Virus record (IMG/VR): IMGVR_UViG_2531839179_000017
From: a virus
Taxonomy: Duplodnaviria > Heunggongvirae > Uroviricota > Caudoviricetes
DNA: 14,423 nt
Direction: 5' to 3' (one strand)
The notes beneath the pieces are model-generated. The model was not told the DNA's origin, did not search any database, and was given only the letters and a program-made list of their open reading frames with translations. Of this stretch, positions 1 to 14,423 are shown piece after piece (within the stretch, counting starts at the first letter, position 1; every line of letters begins with the position of its first letter). Both the position numbers and the translations under genes were made by a program.

Positions 1-165
1 ATGGCAAAGCCGATCATCACGCTCAATGGCCTAAAAATCGTCATTATGTTGGGAATGCTGGTCATTATTCTCTGCGGTATCCGTTTTGCCGCCGAGATCA
101 TCGTGCCGTTTATTCTCGCATTATTTATTGCTGTTATATATAACTTATTTCACATAACACGTTGA
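1..165 (+). pseudogene. Truncated 5' fragment of a host inner-membrane protein gene (AI-2E/PerM-type transporter-like N-terminus); 54 codons then stop
   Basis: ATG at nt 1; translation [45 protein letters not shown] is a hydrophobic transmembrane N-terminus that I recall as TqsA/YdgG-like (recall only, not verifiable here). From about nt 136 the frame runs into AT-rich sequence (IYNLFHITR) and stops at 163-165. Absent from the ORF track because it is under 60 aa. Confidence 0.5.
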
Positions 166-496
166 TTTAATTAAATAATTTTCACCGCAAAAAGTGCCAA
201 AAATCGCAAAATGACTACACCAGTGACTACACCGTTCGGTGCACTGTATGAAACAACGTGGAACAAATAGACACAAGAAATATACAGGCGGATCATCTTT
301 CCAGGGGGAAGCGCACCAATTCATGAGGGGCGTTAATGTCGATATGGGGATCCCCACCTACCGGAATTTTTTTCCGGTTAAACGTTAATCAGGCTGGTGG
401 GCTTTACCTGTTCGGTAGGTGTTATGATTATCGTAATACCTTTCCCCCAATGGGGTAAAAGCATCAACCGTAACGAAAGTCGTTATGGTTGCCACT

Positions 497-609
497 GATA
501 CCCCAAATTTGGGTATCACGAGTAAGACCCAAAATCTGGGTGTTACTCTTACTACCCAAACTACGGGTAGTTTCCGTAGTTTCATGGTCGAGTTGCAGAT
601 CTGCAACTC
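497..609. repeat. Array of three related stem-loops (497-517, 527-541, 552-570) followed by a perfect 20-bp palindrome (590-609)
   Basis: GATACCC-CAAATTT-GGGTATC, ACCCA-AAATC-TGGGT and CTACCC-AAACTAC-GGGTAG share an ACCC-AAA-N-GGGT core; GAGTTGCAGATCTGCAACTC is self-complementary. The ORFs called here overlap one another in three frames, so the region is treated as non-coding. Confidence 0.6.
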
Positions 610-902
610 CCCCATTAACCACAGGCGAATTTCCGCCTTCGGTCATTCCTTAATCATCTGCGTAATCATAATGATTATTCAGCAAGCGCAATTTTGCACT
701 TTGCTTAAAGTTCAGCGAGTTACCGCGCCGACTTCCTCAAATTGAGGTTTCCGAAAATATCAGCGGGTTAGCGATTAAGCTGATCATTAATTAAACTGCG
801 AAAATTTCGTAGTTTGTGACTGTCTTTCAGGCAGCTTGTTAACAGTCCTCAGAAGCGAGGGATGTAGCCACCCATTTTTGGTCCGTCGGGAATATCAACC
901 AG

Positions 903-1184
903 TTACCGCCGCAACCGCTCCGGCTTCTTCCAGTGGTACGTTATTTTCTCCTTCTCCCGATACATCTCCACGCGGCGACGGTAGGCCAGCAACTCAAGAG
1001 CTCTGGTTCGTATGTTGCGCATATCCACGCCATTAAGTTCTATACCATCACGGCGCATCACCTCAGCAACAACACGCGCATAGTTTTCGGCTGTCACGCT
1101 GTCCGGCTGCGTGGCCTGTTCGTCAGCCTGCTGGCTGATTCCGGCAACGCGGCGGATTAATCCCGTTATTTCGGCTTCTGTCAT
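903..1184 (-). CDS. Hypothetical protein, last gene of the packaging operon
   Basis: 93-aa ORF; ATG at 1184 preceded by TGAGG about 9 nt upstream and placed 14 nt after the large-terminase stop (1198-1200). No family recognised. Confidence 0.45.
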   Translation of the reverse strand: MTEAEITGLIRRVAGISQQADEQATQPDSVTAENYARVVAEVMRRDGIELNGVDMRNIRTRALELLAYRRRVEMYREKEKITYHWKKPERLRR

Positions 1185-1197
1185 GCTGCTGACCTCA

Positions 1198-2859
1198 TTA
1201 CACCCCGCTAAATTCTTCCAGTTTCTGGCGGTGGCTGTCGCTTATATCAAAAGCAAAATCCTCATGCTCTGCCTGGAATGTACCAAACGCCATCAGCGCC
1301 GCCACGCTCGGGTCTATCTTGTTCGGTGATTTTTTCTTGTTCGGCTTGATATTGGCGTTCGCGTCACTCTGCATCACGACGTTACTCATCGACCAGGACA
1401 ACACCGGATCGCCACGATGCACAATCACCCTGCGGTTAACAAAAACTTCGAACGATTTCGCCGCCGGACTGAATCTGAGGTAGGTTTGCGGGAACGGCTC
1501 CACCTCAAAACCTGCCCCCTGTAATTGCGTTCTGAGATGCGTGGCGTTCCACGTATCAAAGCCCACCAGCCTGATATTAAATTTCTCCGCGTCCTGCATG
1601 ATGTCATCTCTGATCCGGTCGTAATCAATGCAGTCGCCAGGCGTTGTGCGTATCCAGCCTGCTTTAGCCCACTGACGATAGATGGCGCGGTTTTTATTGG
1701 CGGGGTTCTGTAGCTGAAATTCCGGCAGATAGTGACGGGAAACCAGCATAATGGTTTTACCGACCGGAAAGGCATAGCACACGCTGGAAATATCGCTGGT
1801 TGATGATAAGTCCAGCCCCGCGTAACACTCCTGGCCGTGTAAATCTTCCTCCGTGAACGTTCCGGCACACTCAGCCCATGCGCCGTTACCCATCCACGGG
1901 GTAGCCCCCTGGCACCAGATATTAAATCGCTTTGTCATCATCTCCACCCACTGCGACGGAATACCCCGCGCTTTCTGGATGGTTGAGGCCAGTTTTTCAC
2001 GATCCACGGAAACATCGATGTTAGGGTTAGCCTTTATCCACATCGCCGGATCATCAACCTCGTTTTCGTCGTCCAGCTCGTAAATCAGCACAAAAATTGA
2101 ATCGTTGACCTCTTCGCCGTCCAGGATCTGGCAGCAATAATCATAGTGCTGTTTACAGGCTGAAACGACGTTACTGCCCGATGTGGTAATGGCAAATAAC
2201 AGCCCTTCGGGACGTGCGCCCATCCCCAGCTCAAGCGCGGAATAAACGCCGTTATCGGGGTGTAGGTGGTATTCGTCCACGATGGAAAGGCTGGGGTTTG
2301 TTCCCTCGATGGTTGCCGCTTTTGCTGCCAGCGGCTTTAACAGGCTGTTGCTTTTCGGGTGCATCACCTTGTGGGCCTGAATATTCACCCGCCTGCGTAA
2401 CGGTCGGGATAAAAGGCACATCTGACGCGCATCATCAAAAACGATCCGCGCCTGGTCACGGCTCACCGCTGCGGTGTAAATATCCTGCTGCCCGTTCTCC
2501 ATAATCAGAAACCAGTTAGCCAGAATCGCGGCGGTCGTGGATTTCGCATTTTTGCGCGGCACTTCGATAAAGGCGCTCGTATATTTGCGCCGTCCGGTGG
2601 CCTTAACCTTAAAGCCGAGGATGCACGCAAAGGCGAACTGCTGCCACGGCTCCAGCTCAATGGGGCTACCGCGCATTGCGCCTTTTACGTGCGGGCACAC
2701 CCTGGAAAAGGCAATAAACCGCTCCACAACCTCACGATCGAACGTGTAAAGGGGGCTTTCAAGGTCCGAAAAGTACCGTTTAACGGCCTGTTTCAGCCGT
2801 TTACAGGCCGGAATTTTGCCCGTTTTTACGTCTTCTGCGTACTTATTCCAGGCGGTCAA
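1198..2859 (-). CDS. terL: Terminase large subunit (HK97/Terminase_1-like ATPase-nuclease)
   Basis: 553-aa ORF with typical TerL N-terminus (TAWNKYAEDVKTGKIPACK) and overall TerL-like length and composition. First codon is TTG at 2859 with AGGA about 6 nt upstream; overlaps the terS 3' end by 17 nt. Confidence 0.85.
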   Translation of the reverse strand: MTAWNKYAEDVKTGKIPACKRLKQAVKRYFSDLESPLYTFDREVVERFIAFSRVCPHVKGAMRGSPIELEPWQQFAFACILGFKVKATGRRKYTSAFIEVPRKNAKSTTAAILANWFLIMENGQQDIYTAAVSRDQARIVFDDARQMCLLSRPLRRRVNIQAHKVMHPKSNSLLKPLAAKAATIEGTNPSLSIVDEYHLHPDNGVYSALELGMGARPEGLLFAITTSGSNVVSACKQHYDYCCQILDGEEVNDSIFVLIYELDDENEVDDPAMWIKANPNIDVSVDREKLASTIQKARGIPSQWVEMMTKRFNIWCQGATPWMGNGAWAECAGTFTEEDLHGQECYAGLDLSSTSDISSVCYAFPVGKTIMLVSRHYLPEFQLQNPANKNRAIYRQWAKAGWIRTTPGDCIDYDRIRDDIMQDAEKFNIRLVGFDTWNATHLRTQLQGAGFEVEPFPQTYLRFSPAAKSFEVFVNRRVIVHRGDPVLSWSMSNVVMQSDANANIKPNKKKSPNKIDPSVAALMAFGTFQAEHEDFAFDISDSHRQKLEEFSGV

Positions 2860-3199
2860 GCTCGTCCTCTTCTTCTGTTTCCGGTGGATTTTTACGGCGG
2901 CTTATCGGGTCAAAACCGAGCAAGGAGGCCATTTTTATCATCACTCTTTCAGCGTCGGATTTTGCGCTTAATGCGGGGTTTCTGCTCTCGCCGCCCTGAC
3001 TGTTAACAATGCTGAACCCGCGCGCCGCAAGGTCTGCAACGGCTTTCCGGTAAATGGAGTAGTTGACACAATACAGTTCCAGATTACTCCAGTCGGCGGG
3101 GGTAAGGTCTCCCCGTTCCGCAAGCTGCCGCGATTTTTCCCGCCACTGCTTCACGGCGATATCATCCAGGTAGGCGGGGGCTTTCGGTGGTCTTGCCAT
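2843..3199 (-). CDS. terS: Terminase small subunit (P27-family-like)
   Basis: 118-aa ORF, ATG at 3199; sequence MARPPKAPAYLDDIAVKQWRE...LELYCVNYSIYRKA resembles P27-family small terminases; sits immediately upstream of and overlapping terL. Weak Shine-Dalgarno. Confidence 0.7.
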   Translation of the reverse strand: MARPPKAPAYLDDIAVKQWREKSRQLAERGDLTPADWSNLELYCVNYSIYRKAVADLAARGFSIVNSQGGESRNPALSAKSDAERVMIKMASLLGFDPISRRKNPPETEEEDELDRLE

Positions 3200-3244
3200 G
3201 CTTATTTTTTCGCCAGATTATTTTTCAAAAAATTCCCGTGCATA

Positions 3245-3310
3245 AAAATTTGAGGAGGCGGTCGGTGCCCGGCGGGGTCGGGTTTGTCCTGAAAACGCCC
3301 CCCACCCCGT
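3245..3310. other. Candidate cos / packaging-initiation region in the HNH-terS gap
   Basis: About 290-bp gap between HNH stop (3489) and terS start (3199) containing a GC-rich block GAGGAGGCGGTCGGTGCCCGGCGGGGTCGGG flanked by AT-rich runs. In HK97-like cos phages the cos site lies between the HNH gene and terS. Position-based inference only. Confidence 0.3.
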
Positions 3311-3488
3311 CATACAGCCTCATCAGCGATTGCGGAAACATTCCATAACCTCGCGGTCACGGTCGGTTAATCGCTTCGCTGTGATGCGTTCTGCGCGTCC
3401 TGACGCTTTATCTTTATGCCCTGTTTCCTGTGTCTTCCATGCGTCACGCTGCCTTATAAGTCCACGGATAAGGCGGTTTTGTTCCCGC

Positions 3489-3929
3489 TCATTCATCAGC
3501 GTCATACATCCAGTTATTGCGGTTAGCGGCCCGTTCTTCCTCCTCACGGAATCCGCCAGCGGCACGCTTGCTTTTTGTTGCCGGATCAAGCCACTTCGTT
3601 TTCTGGTTATGACACGCCTGGCACAATGGCTGATGGTTCCATTCGGGCCAGAAGAGAACATCATCACCGCCATTAATCGGGATAATGTGATCCACCACCA
3701 CGGCGGGCGTATATATCCCCTTCTCAAGGCATCGCACGCATAACGGGTTTTTACTCAGATACATGGCGCGGTATTTGTCCCACTGTCTGGAGTACCCACG
3801 CGCGCGGCGGTGTCCTCGTCTGGCATCCTCTGCACGCCATGCCGCCCGCCTGTGCTCCTCACACTTGCCGGACTTCACGCGCCTGTTACAGCCTGGTTCT
3901 GTGCATCGTCTTAATGGTTGCCACGGCAT
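3489..3929 (-). CDS. HNH endonuclease (terminase-associated)
   Basis: 146-aa ORF, ATG at 3929; Cys-rich N-terminus (CTEPGCNRRVKSGKCEEH), catalytic-like DHIIP...N...W.E.NHQPLCQACHNQK motif; located directly upstream of terS as in HK97-type packaging modules. Confidence 0.8.
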   Translation of the reverse strand: MPWQPLRRCTEPGCNRRVKSGKCEEHRRAAWRAEDARRGHRRARGYSRQWDKYRAMYLSKNPLCVRCLEKGIYTPAVVVDHIIPINGGDDVLFWPEWNHQPLCQACHNQKTKWLDPATKSKRAAGGFREEEERAANRNNWMYDADE

Positions 3930-4225
3930 CAGTACACCCCCACATCACGGTAAGCCGTCCAGAGTGCGCCTATCGTCATGGGTACGCGTGTTTTTGCGTT
4001 ATCCGCGACAATCTGGCGATTTTCATACAGGTGAGCGATAAACATCATGCAGCCAATCTTTATGGCTGGCGTGAACGCCAGCCCGTCATCAAAGCGCCTG
4101 CCTATATGTATCTGGCACGCCTCAAGCGATGCGGCAATGTATCCGCTGATTAACTGGTCTTCCTCGTCGCCATCGATGCGGCAATGGAGTTTCACTTCTT
4201 CCAGGGTGATAAGTTCTTCTGTCAT
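3929..4225 (-). CDS. Head-tail connector protein (gp6-like)
   Basis: 98-aa ORF, ATG at 4225; stop overlaps the HNH start (TGATG). Size, position and sequence are typical of phage head-tail connector/DNA-packaging gp6-like proteins. Confidence 0.6.
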   Translation of the reverse strand: MTEELITLEEVKLHCRIDGDEEDQLISGYIAASLEACQIHIGRRFDDGLAFTPAIKIGCMMFIAHLYENRQIVADNAKTRVPMTIGALWTAYRDVGVY

Positions 4226-4560
4226 TTTTCCGCGCCCTCACGACAAAGAATTTCAAGGCGTGTCCTGGCGGCATCCGGCAGCGGCTGCCCGATGATATTC
4301 AGTACACGCCCCGCCAGCGGCCCCGTATTGACCTTTACCCGGCTGGTGGCGTTGATGTCCTTCCTGTAGCGTATCCATATCCTTACCGTTCCAGTCGCCA
4401 GTTCTGCACCCGATGAAATGGCCTCCTTGCTGCTGATCATGTTCACGCTTGCCCAGAGTGTGTGACCGTCCACCCACGTTTCGAGTATTTCGCCGGTTAT
4501 ATCCCTGGTCTGTTTCAGGGTCTGAATCGTTACCCTGTCACGCAGTCGCCCTATGTTCAT
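4222..4560 (-). CDS. Head-tail adaptor / head-closure protein
   Basis: Start chosen at ATG 4560 (MNIGRLRDRVTIQ...), which overlaps the portal stop as ATGA; the track's longer start at 4602 lacks a Shine-Dalgarno. About 112 aa, consistent with head-tail joining proteins. Confidence 0.6.
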   Translation of the reverse strand: MNIGRLRDRVTIQTLKQTRDITGEILETWVDGHTLWASVNMISSKEAISSGAELATGTVRIWIRYRKDINATSRVKVNTGPLAGRVLNIIGQPLPDAARTRLEILCREGAEK

Positions 4561-5768
4561 TCCGGTTTTTCTCCCTCGCTGATTTTTACTTCCTGTTTCC
4601 ATGCCTGGCTGAACTCATCACCACCATCACGCGGGGACAGCCCTTCACGTTCGCGGGCTTCGTTCGGGCACATAACGCCGGATTTGATGCCGCGTTCATA
4701 GGTGGCAAAGCGTTCGCCAGGAGTGGCCCGTAACAGGTCCGCGCTGTCAAACTCCACCTGATACCGGATACCAGGTACAGGTGAGGCCACCAGCAGGGCG
4801 TTTTTTATCTGCTGCTCAAAGTTCGCCAGCCACGGACGCATCGTCATGGTGAGAAATGCGCGGCTTGCCTCGCTGAAATTGCTGTAGGTGCTGTTGCTGT
4901 ATTCCTGCAAAAAAATCGGCGAGACGTTGAACATTCGGGCGATGTCTTCAATGGTGAAGCGACGGGAGGCCAGCCATTCAGCATCCTGATTACTCATGCC
5001 CAGCTGCTGATAGCTCATACCCCCTTCAAGGATGGGCGTTTTTCCGGCGTTTCTGGCCCCTTTGTAGCGTTCCAGTGCGGCTAATGCCTGTTTGCCCTTC
5101 ACGCCGTCCAGCCATTCGCCTGACGTGATAACCCCTGCCGCCATCATGCCATCACGCATCACGCTCGCGCCGTGGCGTTGTTGGGCCAGCCCAAGCCCCA
5201 GCGATTCGCGGCAGATGGTTACAGGTGAGCGCCCCATAAAACCGTCATCCGTGGAGTAACGAAGGTGGAGAACCTCCCACGGTAAATAGTTGCGGGTGTT
5301 TCCGGTGTAGGCGTCAGTGATGCAGTAGCGCCAGTTATGCTCACCTGTCTGCTCCACGTTCACCGACTGCGGCGGGTAAGGATGCAAAGCCACCGGAAAA
5401 CCATCACGCCCCCACTGAATCACCGCATAAGCATTACCGTTTAACAGGCAGTGGCGGATCATCATTCGCTTAAACTGGTAGGGGGTTTGCCATGCGTTCG
5501 GGCGCTCGTTGAGGATGTGATCGACCGGATGAGAATCAAGCCACTCTCGGGCCTCCTTCCCCTTCTCATTGCGTACCAGGTACAGGTAACACGGCATGGT
5601 AGCCACCGCCTCAGAGATGACCGTGACGGCGTTCATGACGGCGGGCAGTGATTCCGCTGTCCCCGATGATACGTACTCACCCGCCCCCGTGTTCGATGTG
5701 CCAGCCAGCGCCATAAACTCATCAAGCGTCATGCTGCGCTGCTCTTTTTTTCTTCTGAAAGGCCACAT
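4557..5768 (-). CDS. Portal protein (HK97 family)
   Basis: 403-aa ORF, ATG at 5768; length and conserved central region (YLPWEVLHLRY...GRSPV...) are typical of HK97-type portals; located between protease and adaptor genes. Confidence 0.85.
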   Translation of the reverse strand: MWPFRRKKEQRSMTLDEFMALAGTSNTGAGEYVSSGTAESLPAVMNAVTVISEAVATMPCYLYLVRNEKGKEAREWLDSHPVDHILNERPNAWQTPYQFKRMMIRHCLLNGNAYAVIQWGRDGFPVALHPYPPQSVNVEQTGEHNWRYCITDAYTGNTRNYLPWEVLHLRYSTDDGFMGRSPVTICRESLGLGLAQQRHGASVMRDGMMAAGVITSGEWLDGVKGKQALAALERYKGARNAGKTPILEGGMSYQQLGMSNQDAEWLASRRFTIEDIARMFNVSPIFLQEYSNSTYSNFSEASRAFLTMTMRPWLANFEQQIKNALLVASPVPGIRYQVEFDSADLLRATPGERFATYERGIKSGVMCPNEAREREGLSPRDGGDEFSQAWKQEVKISEGEKPE

Positions 5769-5769
5769 A

Positions 5770-6342
5770 TCACACCCCCGCTAAATCCGCCCACCAGCGG
5801 CGATTATCCGCACGCGGCATTTTTTCGGGGTGCTGCTCGTACAGGGAGCGGCGGGCCAGCTCCACGCCGGAATCAGGGTAAGCCGGTACGGATGTAACGG
5901 TAATTTCGTATAGTTCCGCCACCAGCACGGTGCGCACGCATGGATCTGTTGTGGTATCCCATACATCCTTACGGGAACGAAAGCCAAAGCTCATGCCGGA
6001 TATATCACCTCGTTTAACCAGTTCGATAACGTCGCGCCCTGTACTGGTATCCGGTGGGGTCAGTTCAAAGCGTAACCCTGTTTCGTCCTCTTCCAGTTTC
6101 AGCGTGCCGGAACGGGTGCGCCCCAGTAACATGCTGTGGTCATGCTCATACAGGCCGCGAACGTCATTACCCGCCGCAAGCCACTCAGTAAACGCCCCCC
6201 GCTGGAATTTTTCGTAAAACTCCCCCCATAGCAGTTCTGAAAGCTTATCCCAGCGAACAACGTAGCCCGTCAGCGTACCGGCTCCGCTGGTAGTGATTTC
6301 CGATGACCGGATTTCCATACTCTTCATAATTTTTTCACCCAT
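5770..6342 (-). CDS. Prohead maturation protease (HK97 family)
   Basis: 190-aa ORF directly downstream of the major capsid gene. Three in-frame ATGs (6342, 6327, 6318); those at 6327 and 6318 have better Shine-Dalgarno-like sequences. Sequence is characteristic of HK97-like prohead proteases. Confidence 0.8.
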   Translation of the reverse strand: MGEKIMKSMEIRSSEITTSGAGTLTGYVVRWDKLSELLWGEFYEKFQRGAFTEWLAAGNDVRGLYEHDHSMLLGRTRSGTLKLEEDETGLRFELTPPDTSTGRDVIELVKRGDISGMSFGFRSRKDVWDTTTDPCVRTVLVAELYEITVTSVPAYPDSGVELARRSLYEQHPEKMPRADNRRWWADLAGV

Positions 6343-6381
6343 AAAACACTAAAGGGGCTTTTAAGCCCCTTCTGTATGCTG

Positions 6382-7539
6382 TTAATCGTCGTCCTGTGGC
6401 AGTTCCAGAATCTTGATCGCGTTCGAATCCACCACGCCACCGCCTAAATATTTCTGCGTGAAAATTTTGATGAAGCCCGGCTCTGTGAGGTTGTCCGGTC
6501 TGGTGCGAACACCTGTTTCGTGATCAACAATGTAGTAACCGCGTTTGAAGTCACCCAGGGCAATAACGTTATCAGGCATAAACTCCAGATATTCGACCGG
6601 AAGGCCCAGCAACGTATCAGGATCACCCGCCTGTAAACGGTCGCGCCAGATGTAATCACCGTTCGCGTTCTTCACCTTCTGAAGTTTTGCCGCCGTCGTG
6701 GAGTTAACCACCCAGACCGCGTTTTTGCGGTATTTTTTACGTAATGCAAATTTCAGATCGATCAGCGGGTCCGCAGATGTCCACGCCAGAGATTCGGAAG
6801 GTTTAATTACCTGCAACGTACCAAAATCACGCTCTTTGTCGTTCTTCTCTGCACGGGGTACGGATAAAAAACCTTTTGCTTTTTTGTCACCGTCGCCCAC
6901 AACCAGATCGCTTTCTTCGGTTTCCGTGAAGGTGTCGCCAATCTCACCCGTCAGCCATGAAAGGATGTCCACATCGGAAAAATCCACGATTTCCTGTGTG
7001 GTGCGCGGGTACGCATAGACCGGATACAGCTTAATGCTCACCTCGTTAATCTGCGGGGTGCTGGTCTGTTCGCGTGTCTTACCCTCTTCACCGTGGTTAA
7101 CGGTCGCACCGCCAGCGGAAACAAGCTGCTTAAACTCGTTGCTGCTGATTTTCTTCACGGTACAGATGCGGCGCATGGTGGATTCATCCGTCAGCATTCG
7201 CATGATTTCGGTGTTCAGTTCGGGGATAACGGTATAACCACCATCAGCGGGAACGCCTGTACTTAATGCGCGGGTTTCACCTGTCAGAATGTAGTTGCGT
7301 AGTTCTGCGGGGTCAGTGGTCTGGCTGCTTTTACCTGGCTTGCTGCGCTCTTCGTCTGCAATGGCTTCAAGGCGGGAAATGTCTTTATCGAGGGATTCAG
7401 CTTTAGCGCGTAATTCGTCAAATTTTGCGCCCTCAGCATCGTTAAGACTGCGGTTTTCTTTTTCCGCGTTCTCCAGCATGTCGCGCATCTGATTTTTAAT
7501 GGCGGTTTTCTGCTGGCGTAATTCGATTATTCTCGGCAT
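6382..7539 (-). CDS. Major capsid protein (HK97 fold) with N-terminal coiled-coil delta/scaffold domain
   Basis: 385-aa ORF, ATG at 7539 with AGGA about 9 nt upstream; charged coiled-coil N-terminus of about 100 aa followed by an HK97-like capsid body. Confidence 0.85.
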   Translation of the reverse strand: MPRIIELRQQKTAIKNQMRDMLENAEKENRSLNDAEGAKFDELRAKAESLDKDISRLEAIADEERSKPGKSSQTTDPAELRNYILTGETRALSTGVPADGGYTVIPELNTEIMRMLTDESTMRRICTVKKISSNEFKQLVSAGGATVNHGEEGKTREQTSTPQINEVSIKLYPVYAYPRTTQEIVDFSDVDILSWLTGEIGDTFTETEESDLVVGDGDKKAKGFLSVPRAEKNDKERDFGTLQVIKPSESLAWTSADPLIDLKFALRKKYRKNAVWVVNSTTAAKLQKVKNANGDYIWRDRLQAGDPDTLLGLPVEYLEFMPDNVIALGDFKRGYYIVDHETGVRTRPDNLTEPGFIKIFTQKYLGGGVVDSNAIKILELPQDDD

Positions 7540-7546
7540 AAAAAAA

Positions 7547-7576
7547 GTCCTGGGGTTAAGTAAGGAACTCCAGGAC
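7547..7576 (-). promoter_or_regulatory. Hairpin in the capsid leader that sequesters the Shine-Dalgarno; attenuator-like
   Basis: On the mRNA strand: GUCCUGG, 16-nt loop, CCAGGAC, then U7, then AUG (7539). The AGGA ribosome-binding site lies in the 3' arm of the stem and the U-run runs into the start codon. Confidence 0.4.
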
Positions 7577-7628
7577 GCGGCAAAAACTCAACCGTTTTTC
7601 ATAAGGAAATCAGTAATCGCACCGATCG

Positions 7629-7678
7629 TTTTCCCGCCTGGTAATGAATATTGGCGAGCACATTAACAGGCGGGAAAA
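7629..7678. promoter_or_regulatory. Perfect 12-bp inverted repeat (TTTTCCCGCCTG ... CAGGCGGGAAAA) with 26-bp spacer upstream of the capsid operon
   Basis: Exact 12/12 complementarity at 7629-7640 and 7667-7678, in the 290-bp gap between the early operon terminator and the capsid gene. Confidence 0.5.
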
Positions 7679-7795
7679 TGGCCCCAGCGTCCTGGCACCA
7701 CGGGCGAGAATAATCATGATTCAGGTCGGGTAAAATATGCCGTTCCGGTCAGCGAGCAACGTGGAACAACCACGAACAAATAATTTACAAAACAT

Positions 7796-7820
7796 GACAA
7801 AAAGCCGGATTGCTCCGGCT
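7796..7820 (-). terminator. Rho-independent terminator ending the early/replication operon
   Basis: Minus-strand RNA: AGCCGGA-GCAA-UCCGGCU followed by UUUUUGUCAUGUUUU, beginning 6 nt after the TAA stop (7827-7829) of the PerC-like gene. Confidence 0.7.
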
Positions 7821-7826
7821 GTGTGA

Positions 7827-8099
7827 TTATCTGTCCTGGTAATTTCGCCATATTTCATCGCTTACACCATCTATACCCATTTCAGCATAAGTGCGATCTA
7901 CTGCCTTTCTCAGGTCTCCGAAGTTATCCGGCGGCTCCGGTGGCTTCTGTGCCTTCCTGGAACATTCCAGCCGTCGCATCGTAACCTGATGCCGTTCCTT
8001 GTCTGTCTCCACCAGCAGCATGACTTCACCCCATCGCGCCGCCGCCCTCCGGTAAAAGCCTTTCGCCTCGAGTTCTTCCGCTATGCGGTCATGTACCAT
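7827..8099 (-). CDS. PerC-family-like small transcriptional regulator
   Basis: Start chosen at ATG 8099 (MVHDRIAEELEAKGFYRRAAARWGEV...) with GAGGGGG 5 nt upstream; the track's longer ORF starts at a GTG inside the ssb gene. The AE.LE.KG..RRAA.RW motif matches my recollection of PerC/Pch-type activators (recall only). Confidence 0.45.
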   Translation of the reverse strand: MVHDRIAEELEAKGFYRRAAARWGEVMLLVETDKERHQVTMRRLECSRKAQKPPEPPDNFGDLRKAVDRTYAEMGIDGVSDEIWRNYQDR

Positions 8100-8109
8100 C
8101 GCCACCCCC

Positions 8110-8520
8110 TCAGAACGGAATACCGTCACCGTAAGGGTCATCGCCTCCCGCTGGTGGCTGATTACCCTGTGTGCCTGTGGTTTTGCGTCTGTTCCCGCCA
8201 GGACGTGCCGCACGGGCACTGATTACGCTGTCTGCAATAACCTGATAACCCTGCCGCGTTTCCCCGTTCTGTCCGGTCCACTGGCTGACCTGCATCGTGC
8301 CGGATACGCTGGCAACGTCGCCTTTTTGATGTTTAGCCAGGAAGTCGGCCTGCTTACCAAATGCGATGACCGATAGCCATAACGTAGCCTGCCCATCCTG
8401 CGCCTGACTACATGGCAACGATACCGCCATACGTGCCAGCGTCATTGGTGTGCCCTTGCTGGTCTGTTTTACCTGCGGGTCGTCCACCAGCCGCCCGTAA
8501 GCTGCTATCTGTGCTGTCAT
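8110..8520 (-). CDS. ssb: Single-stranded DNA-binding protein
   Basis: 136-aa ORF, ATG at 8520 overlapping the upstream stop as ATGA; OB-fold-like core (LWLSVIAFGKQADFLAKHQKGDVASVSGTMQVSQW), Gly/Pro-rich linker and acidic C-terminal tail ending DDPYGDGIPF, the classic SSB tip. Confidence 0.8.
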   Translation of the reverse strand: MTAQIAAYGRLVDDPQVKQTSKGTPMTLARMAVSLPCSQAQDGQATLWLSVIAFGKQADFLAKHQKGDVASVSGTMQVSQWTGQNGETRQGYQVIADSVISARAARPGGNRRKTTGTQGNQPPAGGDDPYGDGIPF

Positions 8521-8769: not shown

Positions 8770-8975
8770 TGCCCACCTCTACCCACTTTTTTCGCCCACT
8801 TTTTACGTTTTCCCACTTCGTCCAACGTGGGAAATTTGGGATTTATATCATCTTGTTTCATAGGTATTTTTTTAGTGCCCACTTTTTGGGATATATACAC
8901 GTGGGAAAGTGGGTAATTTTGTTAAAATTCCGTTAAATCGCCCACCTTTCCCACTTTTAATGCCCACTTTTTACA
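8770..8975. repeat. Iteron cluster with AT-rich spacer: putative replication origin
   Basis: At least nine direct copies of a CCCAC(T)nTTT-type motif (for example GCCCACTTTTT at 8794, 8877 and 8962; CCCACTTTT at 8782 and 8950) plus inverted copies (GTGGGAAA at 8827 and 8901), interrupted by AT-rich stretches at 8838-8876; immediately 3' of the replicative ATPase gene. Confidence 0.7.
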
Positions 8976-10371
8976 GTGGTCCTACATCATCACCGTCAAT
9001 GTAGATCACGTCGTCTTTTTCCAGTTTGGCTAACCATCGTTTAAGGTGTTTTGTGTCATACCCCAGCTTTTTCATATCGTCACGTAACAGCGGGATCGTG
9101 CACTTGTCGCCGTGCTGTGTGCGTGAACGTATGCATCCCCATAGCGCGGTATGGTTTTCCGTCTTGTTGCCTGCCTCCTCGATGCGCTCCAGTTCAACGG
9201 GAGGGCGCGGCTTATCCACCACCACCAGCGACGTGATTAATTCACCGTCAGCGTCGGTAAAAAGCTCCACCACGCGTAAGTCATATGCGGCTTCTTTGAG
9301 TTCCTCCGCGTCCTTCATTTTGGTGCATGAGATAACCAGCGCTTCGCTTCCTGCGTCCTCCCTGCGTATCCGGTATTCAGCATCCAGCGAAGCACGAAAT
9401 GCACTGGAACCGCGCGCGCCTTTCGTCTCATCCTTGCCGGAATGGTGAACCACCAGCACCGTGGCCCCTGTGCGTCGTTTCAGTTCGTCACAACCACGGA
9501 TAAACGCCCCCATATCACGGGAATCATTTTCATCATTCCCACCAAAGCAACGCGCCAGCGTATCCAGAATAATCATGCGTACAGGTTTACCCGTTTCCCG
9601 CTCCACCTGACGGGCAGCGATAACCATTTCATCAACATCAAGCGGGGCAGCCGGAAAGATGGGGCGGTTTACCAGATACAGATTTTTCACCTGCTCATCG
9701 TGCACAACCTCCCAGGCTTTTACACGACGCGGAACACCTATACCGCCTTCACCAACCACATAGAGAACCGCACCATGTGCAACCCTGCGGCCTCCCCACT
9801 GGCGACCAGTGGCAACATGGCACGCCCACGATCCGGCAAGGAATGATTTATAGGACCCGCTAGCCCCGTATATGCTGCATAGCGATACCGCCGGAATAAT
9901 CCCCTTAACCACGTAATCCAGTTGCGTGTCGTATCCGGTAGATCCAACGCTCATCGGTAGCGTGGTTTTTCGCTGGTGGTTTTTTTCTTCCGCCGGCTCT
10001 TTCCCGCGCACCCGTTCCAGGTATTCGCGCCAGTTCTCCCGCATATGGCTGTGCATCCCTTCGGGGTAATAATTCGCATCAGTTACACCCGCCGCCGCCA
10101 GCTTGTGCGCAATGGCATTAATATTTGATGGCCTGATGTGGCCTGCCTTGTACAGCCGGACACAATAGCGCCCCTCGTCGATGATTCTCAGGTCTGCCAG
10201 TTCATCCAGTTGATCATCAGCCAGCACAACGGGAGGCACATTATCGCCAGCCAGTCGCCCGTCCTGTTCCTGCCACTGTTTCGCATGTGCCCAGGCATCA
10301 CTACCCGCAAAAATAATGACTTCGGTCATCTTGTCGTAAGGCTGTTTTTTTAAGTTCGGTGCGCTTTTCAT
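8971..10371 (-). CDS. Replication initiator ATPase/helicase (RecA-like, AAA_25/RepA-type) with C-terminal winged-helix-like region
   Basis: 466-aa ORF, ATG at 10371 overlapping the upstream stop (ATGA); Walker A GASGSYKS, Walker B-like RMIILDTLARCF, conserved VLVVHHSGKD...GARGSSA block typical of RepA/DnaB-like RecA-fold replicative ATPases. Confidence 0.8.
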   Translation of the reverse strand: MKSAPNLKKQPYDKMTEVIIFAGSDAWAHAKQWQEQDGRLAGDNVPPVVLADDQLDELADLRIIDEGRYCVRLYKAGHIRPSNINAIAHKLAAAGVTDANYYPEGMHSHMRENWREYLERVRGKEPAEEKNHQRKTTLPMSVGSTGYDTQLDYVVKGIIPAVSLCSIYGASGSYKSFLAGSWACHVATGRQWGGRRVAHGAVLYVVGEGGIGVPRRVKAWEVVHDEQVKNLYLVNRPIFPAAPLDVDEMVIAARQVERETGKPVRMIILDTLARCFGGNDENDSRDMGAFIRGCDELKRRTGATVLVVHHSGKDETKGARGSSAFRASLDAEYRIRREDAGSEALVISCTKMKDAEELKEAAYDLRVVELFTDADGELITSLVVVDKPRPPVELERIEEAGNKTENHTALWGCIRSRTQHGDKCTIPLLRDDMKKLGYDTKHLKRWLAKLEKDDVIYIDGDDVGPL

Positions 10372-10667
10372 TTCTTGCCCCTGAATCCGTTAATCATGGT
10401 TTTCAGCTTCTGGATGTTTGCCCGTGCCCTGGCGTTGCTGGTGGGCACGTTATGCGGCGCGGTCTGTACCAGAGAAAAATCACGCCGGAACTGATAAACA
10501 GGCATCACGCAATCATATTCGTAACCTTCACGGCGGTAAGTTACGCACCGTCCCGCCACGCCCTTAATCATTACCGTGCCGCCGTACTGGTCGCGGTAAA
10601 TATCACCGCGCATAAATTTAGGGTGAGTGTTGCCACTGGCAGTTAAGCCAGAATATTTAAGTTTCAT
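10368..10667 (-). CDS. Hypothetical protein (DUF4222-like by recall)
   Basis: 99-aa ORF, ATG at 10667 with GGAG 8 nt upstream; motif GDIYRDQYGGTVMIKGV...YRREGYEYDCVMPVYQFRRDF resembles the prophage DUF4222 family as I remember it. Confidence 0.5.
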   Translation of the reverse strand: MKLKYSGLTASGNTHPKFMRGDIYRDQYGGTVMIKGVAGRCVTYRREGYEYDCVMPVYQFRRDFSLVQTAPHNVPTSNARARANIQKLKTMINGFRGKK

Positions 10668-10672
10668 TATTT

Positions 10673-10906
10673 TTATTCTCCGGTGTGCTGTTCGTTATAT
10701 CTGTCGTGCAATGTCTCTATTTCCTGCAACTCATTTATTACAGGCTCAAGAAGCGTTATTAATGATGTAATAATCCGCGTTTTTTTTGCATTACGTTCAT
10801 TATCGCCAAAGGATTCAAGGCACATCCGCAATATTTCGTACATACCTTCAGCGTAAGCAAGGGCACTAAATGCGCGGTCTATTGTTTCAAGATAAATATC
10901 ACGCAT
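10673..10906 (-). CDS. Hypothetical small acidic protein (paralog C)
   Basis: 77-aa ORF, ATG at 10906 one nt after the upstream stop; predicted helical; shares a hydrophobic-helix-Cys-acidic motif (EILRMCLESF) with neighbouring ORFs. Confidence 0.5.
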   Translation of the reverse strand: MRDIYLETIDRAFSALAYAEGMYEILRMCLESFGDNERNAKKTRIITSLITLLEPVINELQEIETLHDRYNEQHTGE

Positions 10907-10907
10907 A

Positions 10908-11129
10908 TTAATCCCCGTCCGTTGTTTTTCTTAAAACAGCTTCTGTCACGAAATCAGCATAGTTAGCGGCAATATCAAGAATATTTAGCCCTGTACCTCT
11001 GTGCTCATCAGTGCAAAGAAAGAAAAAAGCCACCCGCATAATTTCAGATATTGACGAAAGCGCATCAGCCGCATCATCAGGAACGCCGGAAAATTCTTGT
11101 TTCAGGGAATTAAAACGATCATCACGCAT
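10908..11129 (-). CDS. Hypothetical small protein (paralog B)
   Basis: Start chosen at ATG 11129 (MRDDRFNSLK...) immediately after a G8 run that acts as a Shine-Dalgarno; the track's longer start at 11177 overlaps the upstream gene by 55 nt. Motif PDDAADALSSISEIMRVAFFFLCTDE parallels the upstream ORF. Confidence 0.5.
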   Translation of the reverse strand: MRDDRFNSLKQEFSGVPDDAADALSSISEIMRVAFFFLCTDEHRGTGLNILDIAANYADFVTEAVLRKTTDGD

Positions 11130-11343
11130 AACCCCCCCCATTTTCACAATCAGCAACAAGAATATTTTTAGCGTCATTCAGCGACCGCGTTGCGATGTAT
11201 CGGATACATTCCAGGGCGAACAATGTGTATTCCTCCCGTTCTTCCTTTTGTGCAAGCTCTGCCGTGCATTCAATATCAATAAGCGCATGCATCAGCGTAG
11301 TGAGTGCGGCGGCGGCTGCGTCCGGACGGATGTTATTGCACAT
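11122..11343 (-). CDS. Hypothetical small protein (paralog A)
   Basis: Start chosen at ATG 11343 (MCNNIRPDAAAAALTTLMHALIDIECTAE...) with GGAGGGG 6 nt upstream, overlapping the upstream stop; C-terminus ENGGGYA is encoded through the G8 tract. Confidence 0.5.
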   Translation of the reverse strand: MCNNIRPDAAAAALTTLMHALIDIECTAELAQKEEREEYTLFALECIRYIATRSLNDAKNILVADCENGGGYA

Positions 11344-11764
11344 GGTGTACCCCTCCGCATTTTTTTTCGTTAGAAATAAGCGTTCTTCTTTCCTGTTCAT
11401 CGCTCAGGAATACGCAGACCTCACCGCTAAGGCGTTTAAGTAAGCCGATGATTGCCCCTGATTCGCTGTCGGTCATCATGCCAGGGTAATCCTCTGCCAG
11501 TGCGCAAATAACTTCGATTTGGTGGGCGCGTTCTGCTGCCTGTTGTAGTGTGATTTCCTGGCTCATAAGCCTACCCCCTTGGCGAATACGGGCAGCGAAT
11601 ACCATCACGCAGCCAGCCGGGGATTGCTGGCGTGCTTCCTGTTCGCTGGTGGCCTCAATGGTAATCACGCGCGGTTGTGCCGTGCTCAGGGCGATAAAAC
11701 GCCAGATGTATTTATTCAGGTTGTGCGAGCCCCGCCCTTGCGGGTGTGTGGTATGATTTCTCAT
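11333..11764 (-). CDS. First gene of the early operon; N-terminal Icd-like (cell-division-inhibitor-like) region plus C-terminal helical domain
   Basis: Start chosen at ATG 11764 (GAGG 6 nt upstream); the track's longer ORF starts at a TTG inside the operator. Motif YIWRFIALSTAQPRVITIEATSEQEARQ...VFAARIRQ matches my recollection of Icd-like proteins of P4-type elements (unverified). Confidence 0.5.
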   Translation of the reverse strand: MRNHTTHPQGRGSHNLNKYIWRFIALSTAQPRVITIEATSEQEARQQSPAGCVMVFAARIRQGGRLMSQEITLQQAAERAHQIEVICALAEDYPGMMTDSESGAIIGLLKRLSGEVCVFLSDEQERRTLISNEKKCGGVHHVQ

Positions 11765-11861
11765 AGCTACCTCGATACTTTCGCTATCGTTGGTGGTTAG
11801 AAGCCCGGTTAGTGTTAGCGCACTGCCGGGTTTCGTCGTTTCTGCACCTTGCGCCAACAAG

Positions 11862-11913
11862 GTGTTGAACACCAATTTAAACCCAGGTGTTAAACACGTC
11901 AAGTGTTGAACAC
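11862..11913. promoter_or_regulatory. Triple palindromic operator (GTGTT-N-AACAC) spanning divergent promoters
   Basis: O1 GGTGTTGAACACC (11861-11873), O2 GTGTTAAACAC (11887-11897), O3 AGTGTTGAACACT (11902-11914). Minus-strand promoter candidate: -35 TTGACG (11902-11897), 17-bp spacer, -10 TAAATT (11879-11874), with O1 at the start site. Plus-strand promoter candidate: -35 TTGAAC inside O3, -10 CATACT (11928-11933). Confidence 0.65.
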
Positions 11914-11962
11914 TTATTTTTTTCCTGCATACTGCATTTGTTTTTTATGAGGGGTACACCAC

Positions 11963-12142
11963 ATGGCGACAAAAGCAGTAAACGCAAAATCACAAACCGT
12001 TGCGGCAAGGGTTCCGCATGAAGTTATGAACAATGTTGAGGCGGTAAAAATGCCTGGCGAAAGTACGGGGCAATTTGTTACTGCAGCATTAAAACGAGAA
12101 GTTGAATATCGCCAGCGGCGCAAGGCCAAAGAACCAGAGTAA
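11963..12142 (+). CDS. Small ribbon-helix-helix-like DNA-binding protein; candidate repressor
   Basis: 59-aa ORF (absent from track, under 60 aa): MATKAVNAKSQTVAARVPHEVMNNVEAVKMPGESTGQFVTAALKREVEYRQRRKAKEPE; GAGGGG 8 nt upstream of ATG; beta-strand, helix, G-x-S/T turn, helix pattern typical of Arc/MetJ/CopG folds; divergent from the early operon. Confidence 0.5.
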   Translation: MATKAVNAKSQTVAARVPHEVMNNVEAVKMPGESTGQFVTAALKREVEYRQRRKAKEPE

Positions 12143-12199
12143 TCACCATCAGCGCCGTGGTGTAAGGTATTACGGCGCATTGCTATGCAGGACAACACA

Positions 12200-12373
12200 A
12201 TGACCGATAAAGAATTGACCAAAACATTATCACCGGCACGGAAAAGACGGCGCAGAAAGATAGAACATGAATCAGAAAGATTCGCGCCATGTGCTTTTGC
12301 CCTTGAGCAATTCCTTAAAGAGTACAGGGAAAAGCGCTCATTGCAGGTATGGCAACGAACTGAACCAGACTGA
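12200..12373 (+). CDS. Hypothetical small basic protein, second gene of the divergent unit
   Basis: Start chosen at ATG 12200 (MTDKELTKTLSPARKRRRRKIEHESERF...) with AGGA 8 nt upstream; the track start at 12185 lacks a well-spaced Shine-Dalgarno. Followed by a plus-strand terminator. Confidence 0.45.
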   Translation: MTDKELTKTLSPARKRRRRKIEHESERFAPCAFALEQFLKEYREKRSLQVWQRTEPD

Positions 12374-12468
12374 TTGCATTGCCCACCAGCCTGATAGCGG
12401 CTATCATCCCCGTGCTTATGTTTGGGATCACACACACAAACGGCGCAGCGGGTTATCTGTTCAGAAAG

Positions 12469-12496
12469 GCGGCTCCATTTCGGGGCCGCTTTTTTT
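12469..12496 (+). terminator. Rho-independent terminator of the plus-strand small-gene unit
   Basis: GCGGCUCC-AUUUC-GGGGCCGC (8-bp stem including one G-U pair) followed by U7 at 12490-12496. Confidence 0.65.
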
Positions 12497-12642
12497 ATGC
12501 CTGAAAAACCCCAATTTTGTGGTTTTCCAGTCTCACCAGGGCGAACGAATCCCCGCCCACGTTCTGGCGTATATTCAATCTTCATGGTTATAGCTCTGTG
12601 TTCAGATGATTGATGTGTGGCGGCTGTGTGCCGCCAGCGTGA

Positions 12643-12831
12643 TTAATGAACTGCCTTGCAGCTATCCTTCCAGGCCAGAACCTCGGATAAAGACCAGCCA
12701 ACGGAACGACCGCCAAGTTTACGACGTGATGGGAATTGTCCGGCCTTTTCCAAGCGGTAGCGGCATGAGCGGCTAAGGCCTGTTAGCTTTTCGCATTCTT
12801 TTTCACGTATAAACCGATCAGTGCTTAACAC
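12643..12831 (-). CDS. alpA: AlpA-family phage regulatory protein (HTH; excision/derepression activator-like)
   Basis: 62-aa ORF: REKECEKLTGLSRSCRYRLEKAGQFPSRRKLGGRSVGWSLSEVLAWK matches the AlpA/prophage CP4-57 regulatory protein pattern; first codon is GTG at 12831 with AGGGGG 5 nt upstream. Confidence 0.8.
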   Translation of the reverse strand: MLSTDRFIREKECEKLTGLSRSCRYRLEKAGQFPSRRKLGGRSVGWSLSEVLAWKDSCKAVH

Positions 12832-13205: not shown

Positions 13206-14423
13206 TTATTTTCTTCTGGCTACTGGTAGCGTGGTTACGTTTTCATGTGTTCCCGCCAGTATCCCTAACCGCTCCGTCCACATATCCAGCGCATTGCGTT
13301 TAGCATCCAGATAACGGGAATGATTATAAACTCGCTGCATTCCTGGCATCTGGTGGCCTGTAAGCTGCTCCACGACATGCGGATCAACGCCTAAATCGTT
13401 CAGCATGGTTGTAAAGGTGCGCCGGATGTCATGCAGTGACCAGTGAGGATGATTAAGCCTCCTGTGCGCTAATCTTCCATACTGCGATACGCTGGCCTCC
13501 TGTTTCACTTCCCCCAGCAATAAGCCCGTGTGCCTGTTCTGCTCCACCAGCTGCGTGACGAACGGCAGGATCGCTTCCGGTATGGGCCGGAATATTGCGA
13601 CCTTCGTTTTGCTGTGCTCCTTCGGAACGGTCCATAGCATTTCCGTGAAATCCCACTCCCCGATCTCCGATAACCTCAGTTCTACCGTTCTGGCTCCGAA
13701 GACAATCAGGAGGCGGATTAACGCGACGTAGTAAGGGGAGAATATTTTTTTGTCCAGTGCCTGCAATAATTCGCCAAGTTCTTTGTTACTTAAGACACGT
13801 TCGCTTATATCCGGTTTTTTCCCAACGTCCGCCACGTTCAGATCGTCCAGAACGTTGCTGATTGCATAGCGCCGCCTACGGCAGAACTTAAGCGCCTGTT
13901 TGCACGCCTGTAGCACGAATCCGGCAGTAACAGGCGTTCGCTTTGCCACCTGGTCAAAACAGGCCAGCCAGTGCCGTAGCTCGCATTTATCCAGCGGCAT
14001 AGCACCAATCTGCTGTATTACGTGATTATTAAGTCGCCTTTTCAGGGCGATATAATCCACGCGGTTTTCCTTTACGTAATACTCAAGCCAGTAGGTGAGC
14101 GCATCGCCAACCGTTACCGGCTTTAACGCTTCCTGTACGGTGTAATTAAGCTCATGACGTGGATTTTTCCCCTCTGCCAGCCATGCGCGACACTGGGCGG
14201 CTTTTTCCCTGGCTGATTTCAGGCTCAGATCAGGATAACTTCCCAGCTTAATGCGTTCGGGTCGTGTCTCCCTTCCCGTTCCGGCCCTGTATGTGAAATA
14301 CCAGGTCAATTTCCCTGATGTTAAATATTTCACGCTCAGGTTTCCGCCATCACTATAAAACGTGTTTTTCTCCGCTGGCTTACCATGAAGTTTCCTTAGC
14401 AAGGTATCGCTCAGTTTGTTCAT
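13206..14423 (-). CDS. int: Site-specific tyrosine integrase (P4/CP4-57-type, N-terminal arm-binding domain)
   Basis: 405-aa ORF with ATG at the last window base (14423-14421); N-terminal DUF4102-like region (KLTWYFTYRAGTGRETRPERIKLGSYPDLSLKSAREKA), C-terminal catalytic region with HDIRRTF...LTGHQ...RVYNHSRYL (R-H-R-Y signature). Confidence 0.9.
   Translation of the reverse strand: MNKLSDTLLRKLHGKPAEKNTFYSDGGNLSVKYLTSGKLTWYFTYRAGTGRETRPERIKLGSYPDLSLKSAREKAAQCRAWLAEGKNPRHELNYTVQEALKPVTVGDALTYWLEYYVKENRVDYIALKRRLNNHVIQQIGAMPLDKCELRHWLACFDQVAKRTPVTAGFVLQACKQALKFCRRRRYAISNVLDDLNVADVGKKPDISERVLSNKELGELLQALDKKIFSPYYVALIRLLIVFGARTVELRLSEIGEWDFTEMLWTVPKEHSKTKVAIFRPIPEAILPFVTQLVEQNRHTGLLLGEVKQEASVSQYGRLAHRRLNHPHWSLHDIRRTFTTMLNDLGVDPHVVEQLTGHQMPGMQRVYNHSRYLDAKRNALDMWTERLGILAGTHENVTTLPVARRK

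Follow-up and report, generated by a model that had tools for sequence, protein, structure and literature searches.

The window, by which we mean the whole 14,423-nucleotide stretch of DNA analysed here, opens with a 5' fragment of tqsA and closes at the 5' end of an integrase gene, and between these two genes it carries packaging, capsid, replication and regulatory genes. Its features, in order of position, are as follows.

1-137, plus strand: 5' fragment of tqsA (ydgG, AI-2 exporter), coding for helix H1 and the first half of H2
129-137, no strand: attL copy of the 9-bp att core TGCTGTTAT (crossover region), in tqsA codons 43-46
138-165, plus strand: first element-derived bases, which give the truncated ORF its 9-codon tail and stop
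138-902, no strand: non-coding left end, comprising the P' arm of attP and then, at about 450-620, nested inverted repeats; without a family-supported ORF
211-234, plus strand: tandem pair of 12-bp candidate arm-type repeats, (A/G)TGACTACACC twice, 74 bp from the core
1198-2859, minus strand: terminase large subunit (Pfam TerL_ATPase, TerL_nuclease)
2843-3199, minus strand: terminase small subunit, P27 family (Pfam Terminase_4)
3489-3929, minus strand: HNH endonuclease of the packaging module (Pfam HNH)
3929-4225, minus strand: head-tail connector, gp6-like (Pfam Phage_connect_1)
4222-4602, minus strand: head completion protein (Pfam Phage_HCP)
4557-5768, minus strand: portal (Pfam Phage_portal)
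5770-6342, minus strand: prohead protease, S78 (Pfam Peptidase_S78)
6382-7539, minus strand: HK97-type major capsid protein (Pfam Phage_capsid)
within 7827-8219, minus strand: PerC/Pch-family regulator (Pfam PerC; the Sakai Sp7 homologue is annotated pchE)
8110-8520, minus strand: SSB (Pfam SSB)
8971-10371, minus strand: RepA-type helicase of the replication module (Pfam AAA_25)
10368-10667, minus strand: DUF4222 protein of the replication module (Pfam DUF4222; the same gene pair is present in EcCI042)
12643-12831, minus strand: AlpA-family regulator (Pfam Phage_AlpA, E = 5e-18)
13206-14423, minus strand: tyrosine integrase with an arm-binding domain (Pfam Arm-DNA-bind_3, Phage_integrase)

We are highly confident that the window represents nearly the whole of an E. 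coli capsid-forming phage-inducible chromosomal island (cf-PICI) of about 14.5 kb, located in a regular PICI attachment site inside tqsA. In terms of the criteria for PICIs given by Fillol-Salom et al. 2018 (PMC6092414), every family-supported gene lies on the minus strand, corresponding to unidirectional transcription, and the integrase gene is positioned at one end (the right) next to an AlpA-family regulator. The att site is specific, and all occupants examined are of the PICI type. The island has its own replication module (AAA_25 plus DUF4222) and a size within the range of about 10-15 kb. As in cf-PICIs, genes for capsid, protease, portal, connectors, HNH, TerS and TerL are present in the proteobacterial order. 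The complete order, tqsA'-terL-terS-HNH-connectors-portal-protease-capsid-PerC-SSB-RepA helicase-AlpA-int-'tqsA, is kept in three related genomes (loci L001, L003 and L006). Among the ORFs scanned with Pfam, some of them small and matching no family, there were no tail or lysis families. A prophage was ruled out by comparison with INPHARED, in which no phage record covered more than 14% of the window, at about 78% identity. Helper-phage induction, packaging, and high-frequency transfer have been shown for EcCIEDL933 and EcCICFT073 in the cited PICI papers. By analogy with characterised PICIs, excision of the island described here would follow AlpA and helper-phage induction.

The island is mosaic in its composition. 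Nucleotides 1-3000 match PCN033 without a difference (100%), and EcCI042 Int shares 100% identity with the integrase over 403 aa. The replication region (8779-12145) is of the RepA-helicase type here and in EcCI042, and of the primase type in PCN033, PV15-279, and Sakai Sp7. At the left end, the identity to Sakai Sp7 is 90% over nt 156-493. Downstream of terL and a small ORF, positions 450-620 contain dense, nested, imperfect inverted repeats composed of units similar to CCCAAA-N-TGGGT, for example with arms at 499-531/537-569, 451-476/480-505, and 581-599/600-618. This block matched no Rfam family and may be a packaging (cos) region or a structured RNA.

Gene calls in 11333-12585 look unreliable. 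On the minus strand, this stretch contains two long ORFs (189 and 223 aa) that match no Pfam family. In relatives, it is annotated with 'Icd-like cell division inhibitor' genes or pseudogenes, together with a YlcI/YnfO-family gene on the opposite strand.

The attachment site and its integrase

The first 165 nt of the window constitute an ATG-initiated ORF of 54 codons. Based on an alignment with tqsA of K-12 (b1601, formerly ydgG; locus L002), nt 1-137 of the gene and nt 1-137 of the window are identical at 137/137 positions, and identity collapses from window nt 138. The truncated tqsA ORF is thus made up of 45 codons plus 2 nt, followed by 9 element-encoded codons ending in a stop (YNLFHITR*). 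The original prediction had read this region as a clean ATG and 45 codons of a TqsA/YdgG-like protein that break into AT-rich sequence and a stop, all of which proved to be exact. Comparison with the uninterrupted gene of K-12 sets the breakpoint at nt 137/138. The intact gene does not run colinearly past this junction, in agreement with the earlier view that the element lies inside the coding sequence of a transporter gene. Overall, the tqsA part of the window was matched in 5,424 of 5,426 complete E. coli genomes, and in related genomes the 5' fragment is labelled 'pheromone autoinducer 2 transporter, missing C-terminus', with 144 nt annotated.

As the window stops at the 5' terminus of int, the far junction is located outside it. 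The right junction was inferred from four related genomes (L001, L003, L006, and L007), with elements at 96-98.6% identity. The nearest complete genomes in which the island lies between the two tqsA halves are those of 2013C-4991, PCN033, O157:H7 PV15-279, and strain 042, of which 2013C-4991 is the best whole-window match (98.6% identical across 98% of the window). Their flanking order is mdtJ – tqsA' – element – int – 'tqsA – pntB, and the 'tqsA part beyond int comprises 906 nt annotated as 'missing N-terminus'. In the window, the integrase reading frame begins with an in-frame ATG at the very end, and the RefSeq start is positioned 12 nt beyond; in related genomes, what follows past the window end is the P arm, then the attR core with the other 906 nt of tqsA.

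At the right junctions of the four related genomes, identity with intact tqsA begins at nt 129, and the 9-bp sequence TGCTGTTAT is the only stretch common to the left junction, the right junction, and intact tqsA. The repeat runs on imperfectly to nt 144, with ATATAAC in the element versus TCTTAAC in the host, and the element copy at 138-144 probably serves as a P' core-type half-site. Measured from core to core, the island of the closest genome spans 14,571 bp (L003, with cores at 3129 and 17700). Consequently, a direct repeat of the core and the remainder of the gene, which had both been anticipated beyond int, are present in the closest genomes. The placement of the att core at 130-165 was roughly right, but the true core at 129-137(144) touches the left edge of this interval instead of extending across it. 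In the source strain, we would expect about 190 bp of P arm containing GTGACTACACCAGTGACTACACC beyond nt 14423, then ...TGATAAAATGCTGTTATTCTTAACCCG, 906 nt of tqsA, and pntB.

ARAGORN detected no tRNA or tmRNA in the window or in the four related loci with both flanks (3-18 kb on each side), including the sequence beyond the integrase, and Rfam matched no RNA family in the window. A tRNA or tmRNA target was thereby ruled out, as the first reading of the site, in which no tRNA was visible, had implied.

A 60-aa 'hypothetical protein', WP_001332680.1, is annotated at L003 17512-17694 (L001 33244-33426, and likewise in L006 and L007) on the strand opposite int. This reading frame, which lies past the right end of the window, extends across the start of int and the P arm of attR, arm repeats included, and in all likelihood it is a spurious ORF that overlies the recombination site.

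The integrase has an arm-binding domain (PF13356, E = 1.3e-18) and a catalytic domain (PF00589, E = 3e-16). It is a P4-type integrase in the broad sense, with 24% identity to P4 Int by BLASTP (E = 4e-13). Its target, tqsA codons 43-46, is different from the 3' end of a tRNA or tmRNA gene that is typical of P4-type integrases. The original prediction called such a target uncommon for P4-type integrases, which is fair as a generality but not for this clade, of which tqsA is a regular, published target; for this reason, the site is not a surprise. Exact copies of the arm-type repeat are located at 212-221 and 224-233 of the window. On the int side there is a second tandem pair, at a distance of 128 bp from the core, with no further exact copies in the 20.5-kb locus L003. 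By analogy with P4, we infer that these tandem 12-bp repeats are candidate arm-type Int binding sites, the P' arm being the one contained in the window.

According to the mechanism proposed here, a tyrosine integrase with an arm-binding N-terminal domain would recombine the attP core TGCTGTTAT, which has tandem arm-type repeats on both sides, with the same 9 bp of tqsA. Of the tqsA codons, 45 would thereby stay at attL (window 1-137), and the remaining 299 would come to lie past int, at attR. Int-mediated excision would be expected to rebuild a precise attB (…TTATTTATTGCTGTTATTCTTAACC…), and the excised circle is predicted to carry attP (…GATAAAATGCTGTTATATATAAC…).

Of the 5,423 complete E. 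coli genomes compared with a 160-bp probe spanning attB, 5,174 had the probe sequence in one piece and approximately 249 (4.6%) had it split; 248 extra places were found with the same probe. Longer queries at 80% coverage gave counts of 188, 223, and 347, which fail to separate cf-PICI from classical PICI at tqsA because they include copies at phoQ-ycfD, and the intact-site count obtained with the 160-bp probe is the only clean one. Carriers include O157:H7, O55:H7, O26, O103, porcine PCN033, and strain 042, which we take to be an EAEC strain.

The occurrence of about 249 complete genomes with tqsA split at the same position, in many serotypes, makes it exceedingly unlikely that the insertion was an accidental off-target event of an integrase that normally acts at a tRNA, tmRNA, or intergenic site. 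Such an event might be considered given that a 91%-identical integrase uses the intergenic phoQ-ycfD site, and Arm-DNA-bind_3 integrases commonly target tRNA genes. The tqsA-site integrases examined, however, share 98-100% identity among themselves, and 27 fixed differences set them apart as a group from those at the phoQ site. In addition, the site has been published as a PICI att site (PMC6092414). Integration at a regular site in tqsA is thus the reading that we prefer.

In a set with one genome per species, in which the E. coli representative is without the island, a scan for the exact junction 20-mer gave only 7 matches, all in unrelated taxa (Paenibacillus, Clostridia MAGs), consistent with chance for an AT-rich 20-mer. 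A 208-bp 'insertion' in tqsA of E. coli 2 HS-C was rejected as a further case, as it is an internal tandem duplication unrelated to the att site. This duplication of about 208 bp (L008, NZ_CP038180.1 2229716-2230083) frameshifts tqsA and constitutes an independent loss.

A sister integrase group is found in the cf-PICIs at phoQ-ycfD(roxA), namely Sakai Sp7 and the second copy in RM8385, with an Int that is 91-92% identical to the window Int. We compared window 13206-14423 and 129-165 with L004 17150-18379 and the L004/L005 junctions. The cores are TGCTGTTAT at tqsA versus AAATATGTCC at phoQ-ycfD, and the attP arms of both groups align nearly base for base up to the core. The 6-nt crossover block differs (GCTGTT at tqsA versus ATGTCC at phoQ-ycfD), and so do about 25 bp of the P' side adjoining the core and the arm repeat (GTGACTACACC versus TTAACTACACC). 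The host sequence to the right of the block is similar at both sites (ATTCTTAAC and ATACTTCAC). Of the fixed Int differences between the groups, the arm-binding domain (first 62 residues) holds 16, residues 115-196 hold 8, and the catalytic domain holds 3. Judging by these sequences, the two Int groups look like the outcome of a recent retargeting, mainly via the overlap sequence and co-varying arm sites. Several pathogenic strains (for example, O103 RM8385 and O26) hold two or three cf-PICI/PICI copies at tqsA and phoQ-ycfD.

The interrupted tqsA gene

The cryo-EM structure of TqsA (7nb6) assigns the major pentamer contact, at the cytoplasmic face, to H1 (Thr7-Phe29) and shows H2 (Ala31-Trp57) as a horizontal membrane-embedded helix (PMC9475539). 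The break at residue 45/46 removes H1 from the remainder of the protein and halves H2. On the 5' side, the tail on the truncated ORF varies by element, with a total of 54 aa here and 48 aa in EcCI042, so that the tail at attL is not conserved and is fortuitous. On the 3' side, the element sequence at the right junction of the four related genomes is ...AAA ACA CTA AAT, and in the tqsA frame all four have ...K N T K * * N directly before A44 (TGA TAA AAT GCT). The 5' ORF thus hits a fortuitous stop, two in-frame stops precede the 3' part, and the split falls in H2 and takes away H1, the main pentamer contact. For these reasons, the sequence indicates that tqsA, and with it the AI-2 exporter, is most likely inactive for as long as the island stays in place. 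Less probably, an N-terminally truncated product might arise from GTG51 or ATG54.

The original prediction had raised the possibility that the element supplies a replacement 5' end on the far side of int. Integration would then preserve function, with an island-borne start codon and N-terminal helix joined at the far junction to what remains of tqsA. Points in keeping with this are that the core sits in the 5' region of the gene and that the 906-nt remainder is intact in the four genomes, where it is open, without stops, and has 0-2 amino-acid differences from K-12. Moreover, an ATG overlaps the core at attR (AAAATGCTG). Yet neither this ATG nor another one located 8 nt upstream is in the tqsA frame, both of their reading frames end after a few codons, and the two in-frame stops before A44 are present in 4/4 genomes. 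No sigma-70-like promoter was found in 600 bp around attR, and a promoter and terminator scan of window 1-1250 gave nothing above shuffled expectation. Both tqsA halves are marked as pseudogenes by RefSeq, and the domain test of Mageeney et al. scores tqsA elements as 'disrupted without restoration' (PMC7192596). A function-preserving integration is thus very unlikely, and the proposed replacement 5' end is refuted at the sequence level by the four genomes. We retain the interpretation that tqsA is disrupted without being restored.

The 5' part of tqsA, like the 3' part, is undecayed. As the core is a perfect 9-bp repeat, precise Int-mediated excision should rebuild tqsA exactly, according to the sequences of the two junctions.

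Possible regulatory role of the insertion

Mageeney et al. 2020 listed tqsA among 19 new cases of 'regulated gene integrity' (PMC7192596). In the supplement to that study, Eco33.11.tqsA, Eco557.15.tqsA, and Eco282.16.tqsA (11, 15, and 16 kb) disrupt the UPF0118 domain without restoration. Similarly, we observed that the target of the island described here is disrupted and left unrestored by attP, with TGA TAA before codon 44 at one junction and a non-conserved tail at the other. Five tqsA-site integrases are 98-100% identical to one another, and the elements that carry them differ in cargo and come from several serotypes and strains.

These observations bear on the idea of an adaptive on/off switch, in which the island would hold AI-2 export off in lysogens and helper-induced excision would restore it. 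The reuse of one site by a tight Int clade, the disruption without restoration, and the proposal of tqsA as a candidate by Mageeney et al. 2020 (PMC7192596) are in its favour, and so are the undecayed state of both tqsA halves and the perfect 9-bp repeat from which exact rebuilding on excision is expected. Intact halves, however, are equally expected from a recent insertion. Furthermore, tqsA is intact in 95% of genomes and the site of the sister Int clade is intergenic, so that tqsA could be no more than a tolerated 'safe harbour'. A helper-induced cell is normally near lysis, which leaves little scope for a regulatory benefit. On balance, we regard an adaptive switch as unlikely.

If there were such a switch, lysogens would retain AI-2, with altered biofilm formation, motility, and virulence signalling. 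Excision, be it spontaneous or helper-induced, would give the exporter back, and carriage of the satellite would in this way be linked to quorum sensing in pathogenic E. coli (O157, O26, O103, and strain 042). The discovery value of the present analysis is small, given that the site, the core, and the interruption of tqsA are in the literature and that about 1 in 20 complete E. coli genomes has the gene split. Its use lies in annotation: the window is a cf-PICI and not a prophage, its opening 54-codon ORF represents only part of a gene, and tqsA in the source strain is best annotated as a pseudogene that is potentially reversible.

Comparison with known elements

The tqsA attachment site, its core, and the disruption of the gene are already known. 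They were published for the classical PICIs EcCI042 (FN554766.1:1832521-1843554, 11 kb) and EcCIK1516, for which Table S1 of Fillol-Salom et al. 2018 gives the core ATAACAGCA and the location tqsA (PMC6092414). This published core is the reverse complement of the independently derived TGCTGTTAT, and we confirmed the junctions of EcCI042 in tqsA directly (L007). For cf-PICIs, six attB sites have been described in E. coli, four of them in common with classical PICIs (Alqurainy et al., 10.1101/2022.09.08.507074). Sakai Sp7, which is labelled 'prophage Sp7; untypable', corresponds according to Fillol-Salom et al. (PMC6092414) to the EDL933 island, an element that was later named EcCIEDL933 and is the prototype cf-PICI. 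The occupant of tqsA described here is a cf-PICI of the EcCIEDL933 family that carries an EcCI042-type int-attP module.

EcCI042 and EcCIK1516 share with the window the 9-bp core in tqsA. EcCI042 also has the same order of AlpA, DUF4222, RepA-helicase, SSB, and PerC, and the same flanks. Unlike the window island, it is 11 kb in size, has a different, smaller set of capsid and decoration genes, and is without terL, terS, HNH, and portal. EcCIEDL933/Sakai Sp7 has the capsid-to-terL module in the same order, window 891-7825 being 96.8% identical (6.9 kb), and it also has int, alpA, SSB, and a PerC-family gene (pchE). By contrast, it is located between phoQ and ycfD (roxA) with the core GGACATATTT, its replication gene is of the primase type, and its Int is 91-92% identical.

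P4 resembles the window island in the arm-binding and catalytic domains of its Int, in its small AlpA/Vis-type regulator, and in its annotated attP, which has tandem 12-bp arm repeats on either side of the core. The two Int proteins share no more than 24% identity (E = 4e-13). In P4, the target is the 3' end of a tRNA-Leu gene, and that gene is regenerated, whereas the target of the window island is protein-coding and is not regenerated. Phage 21 and e14 in icd are similar to it in their site-specific integration inside a coding sequence. Both carry a substitute 3' end for icd, whereas the window element is without a substitute gene end. The Listeria comK prophage, the Bacillus sigK skin element, and the E. 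coli mlrA/Stx phages, like the island in tqsA, occupy a coding sequence that they leave unrestored.
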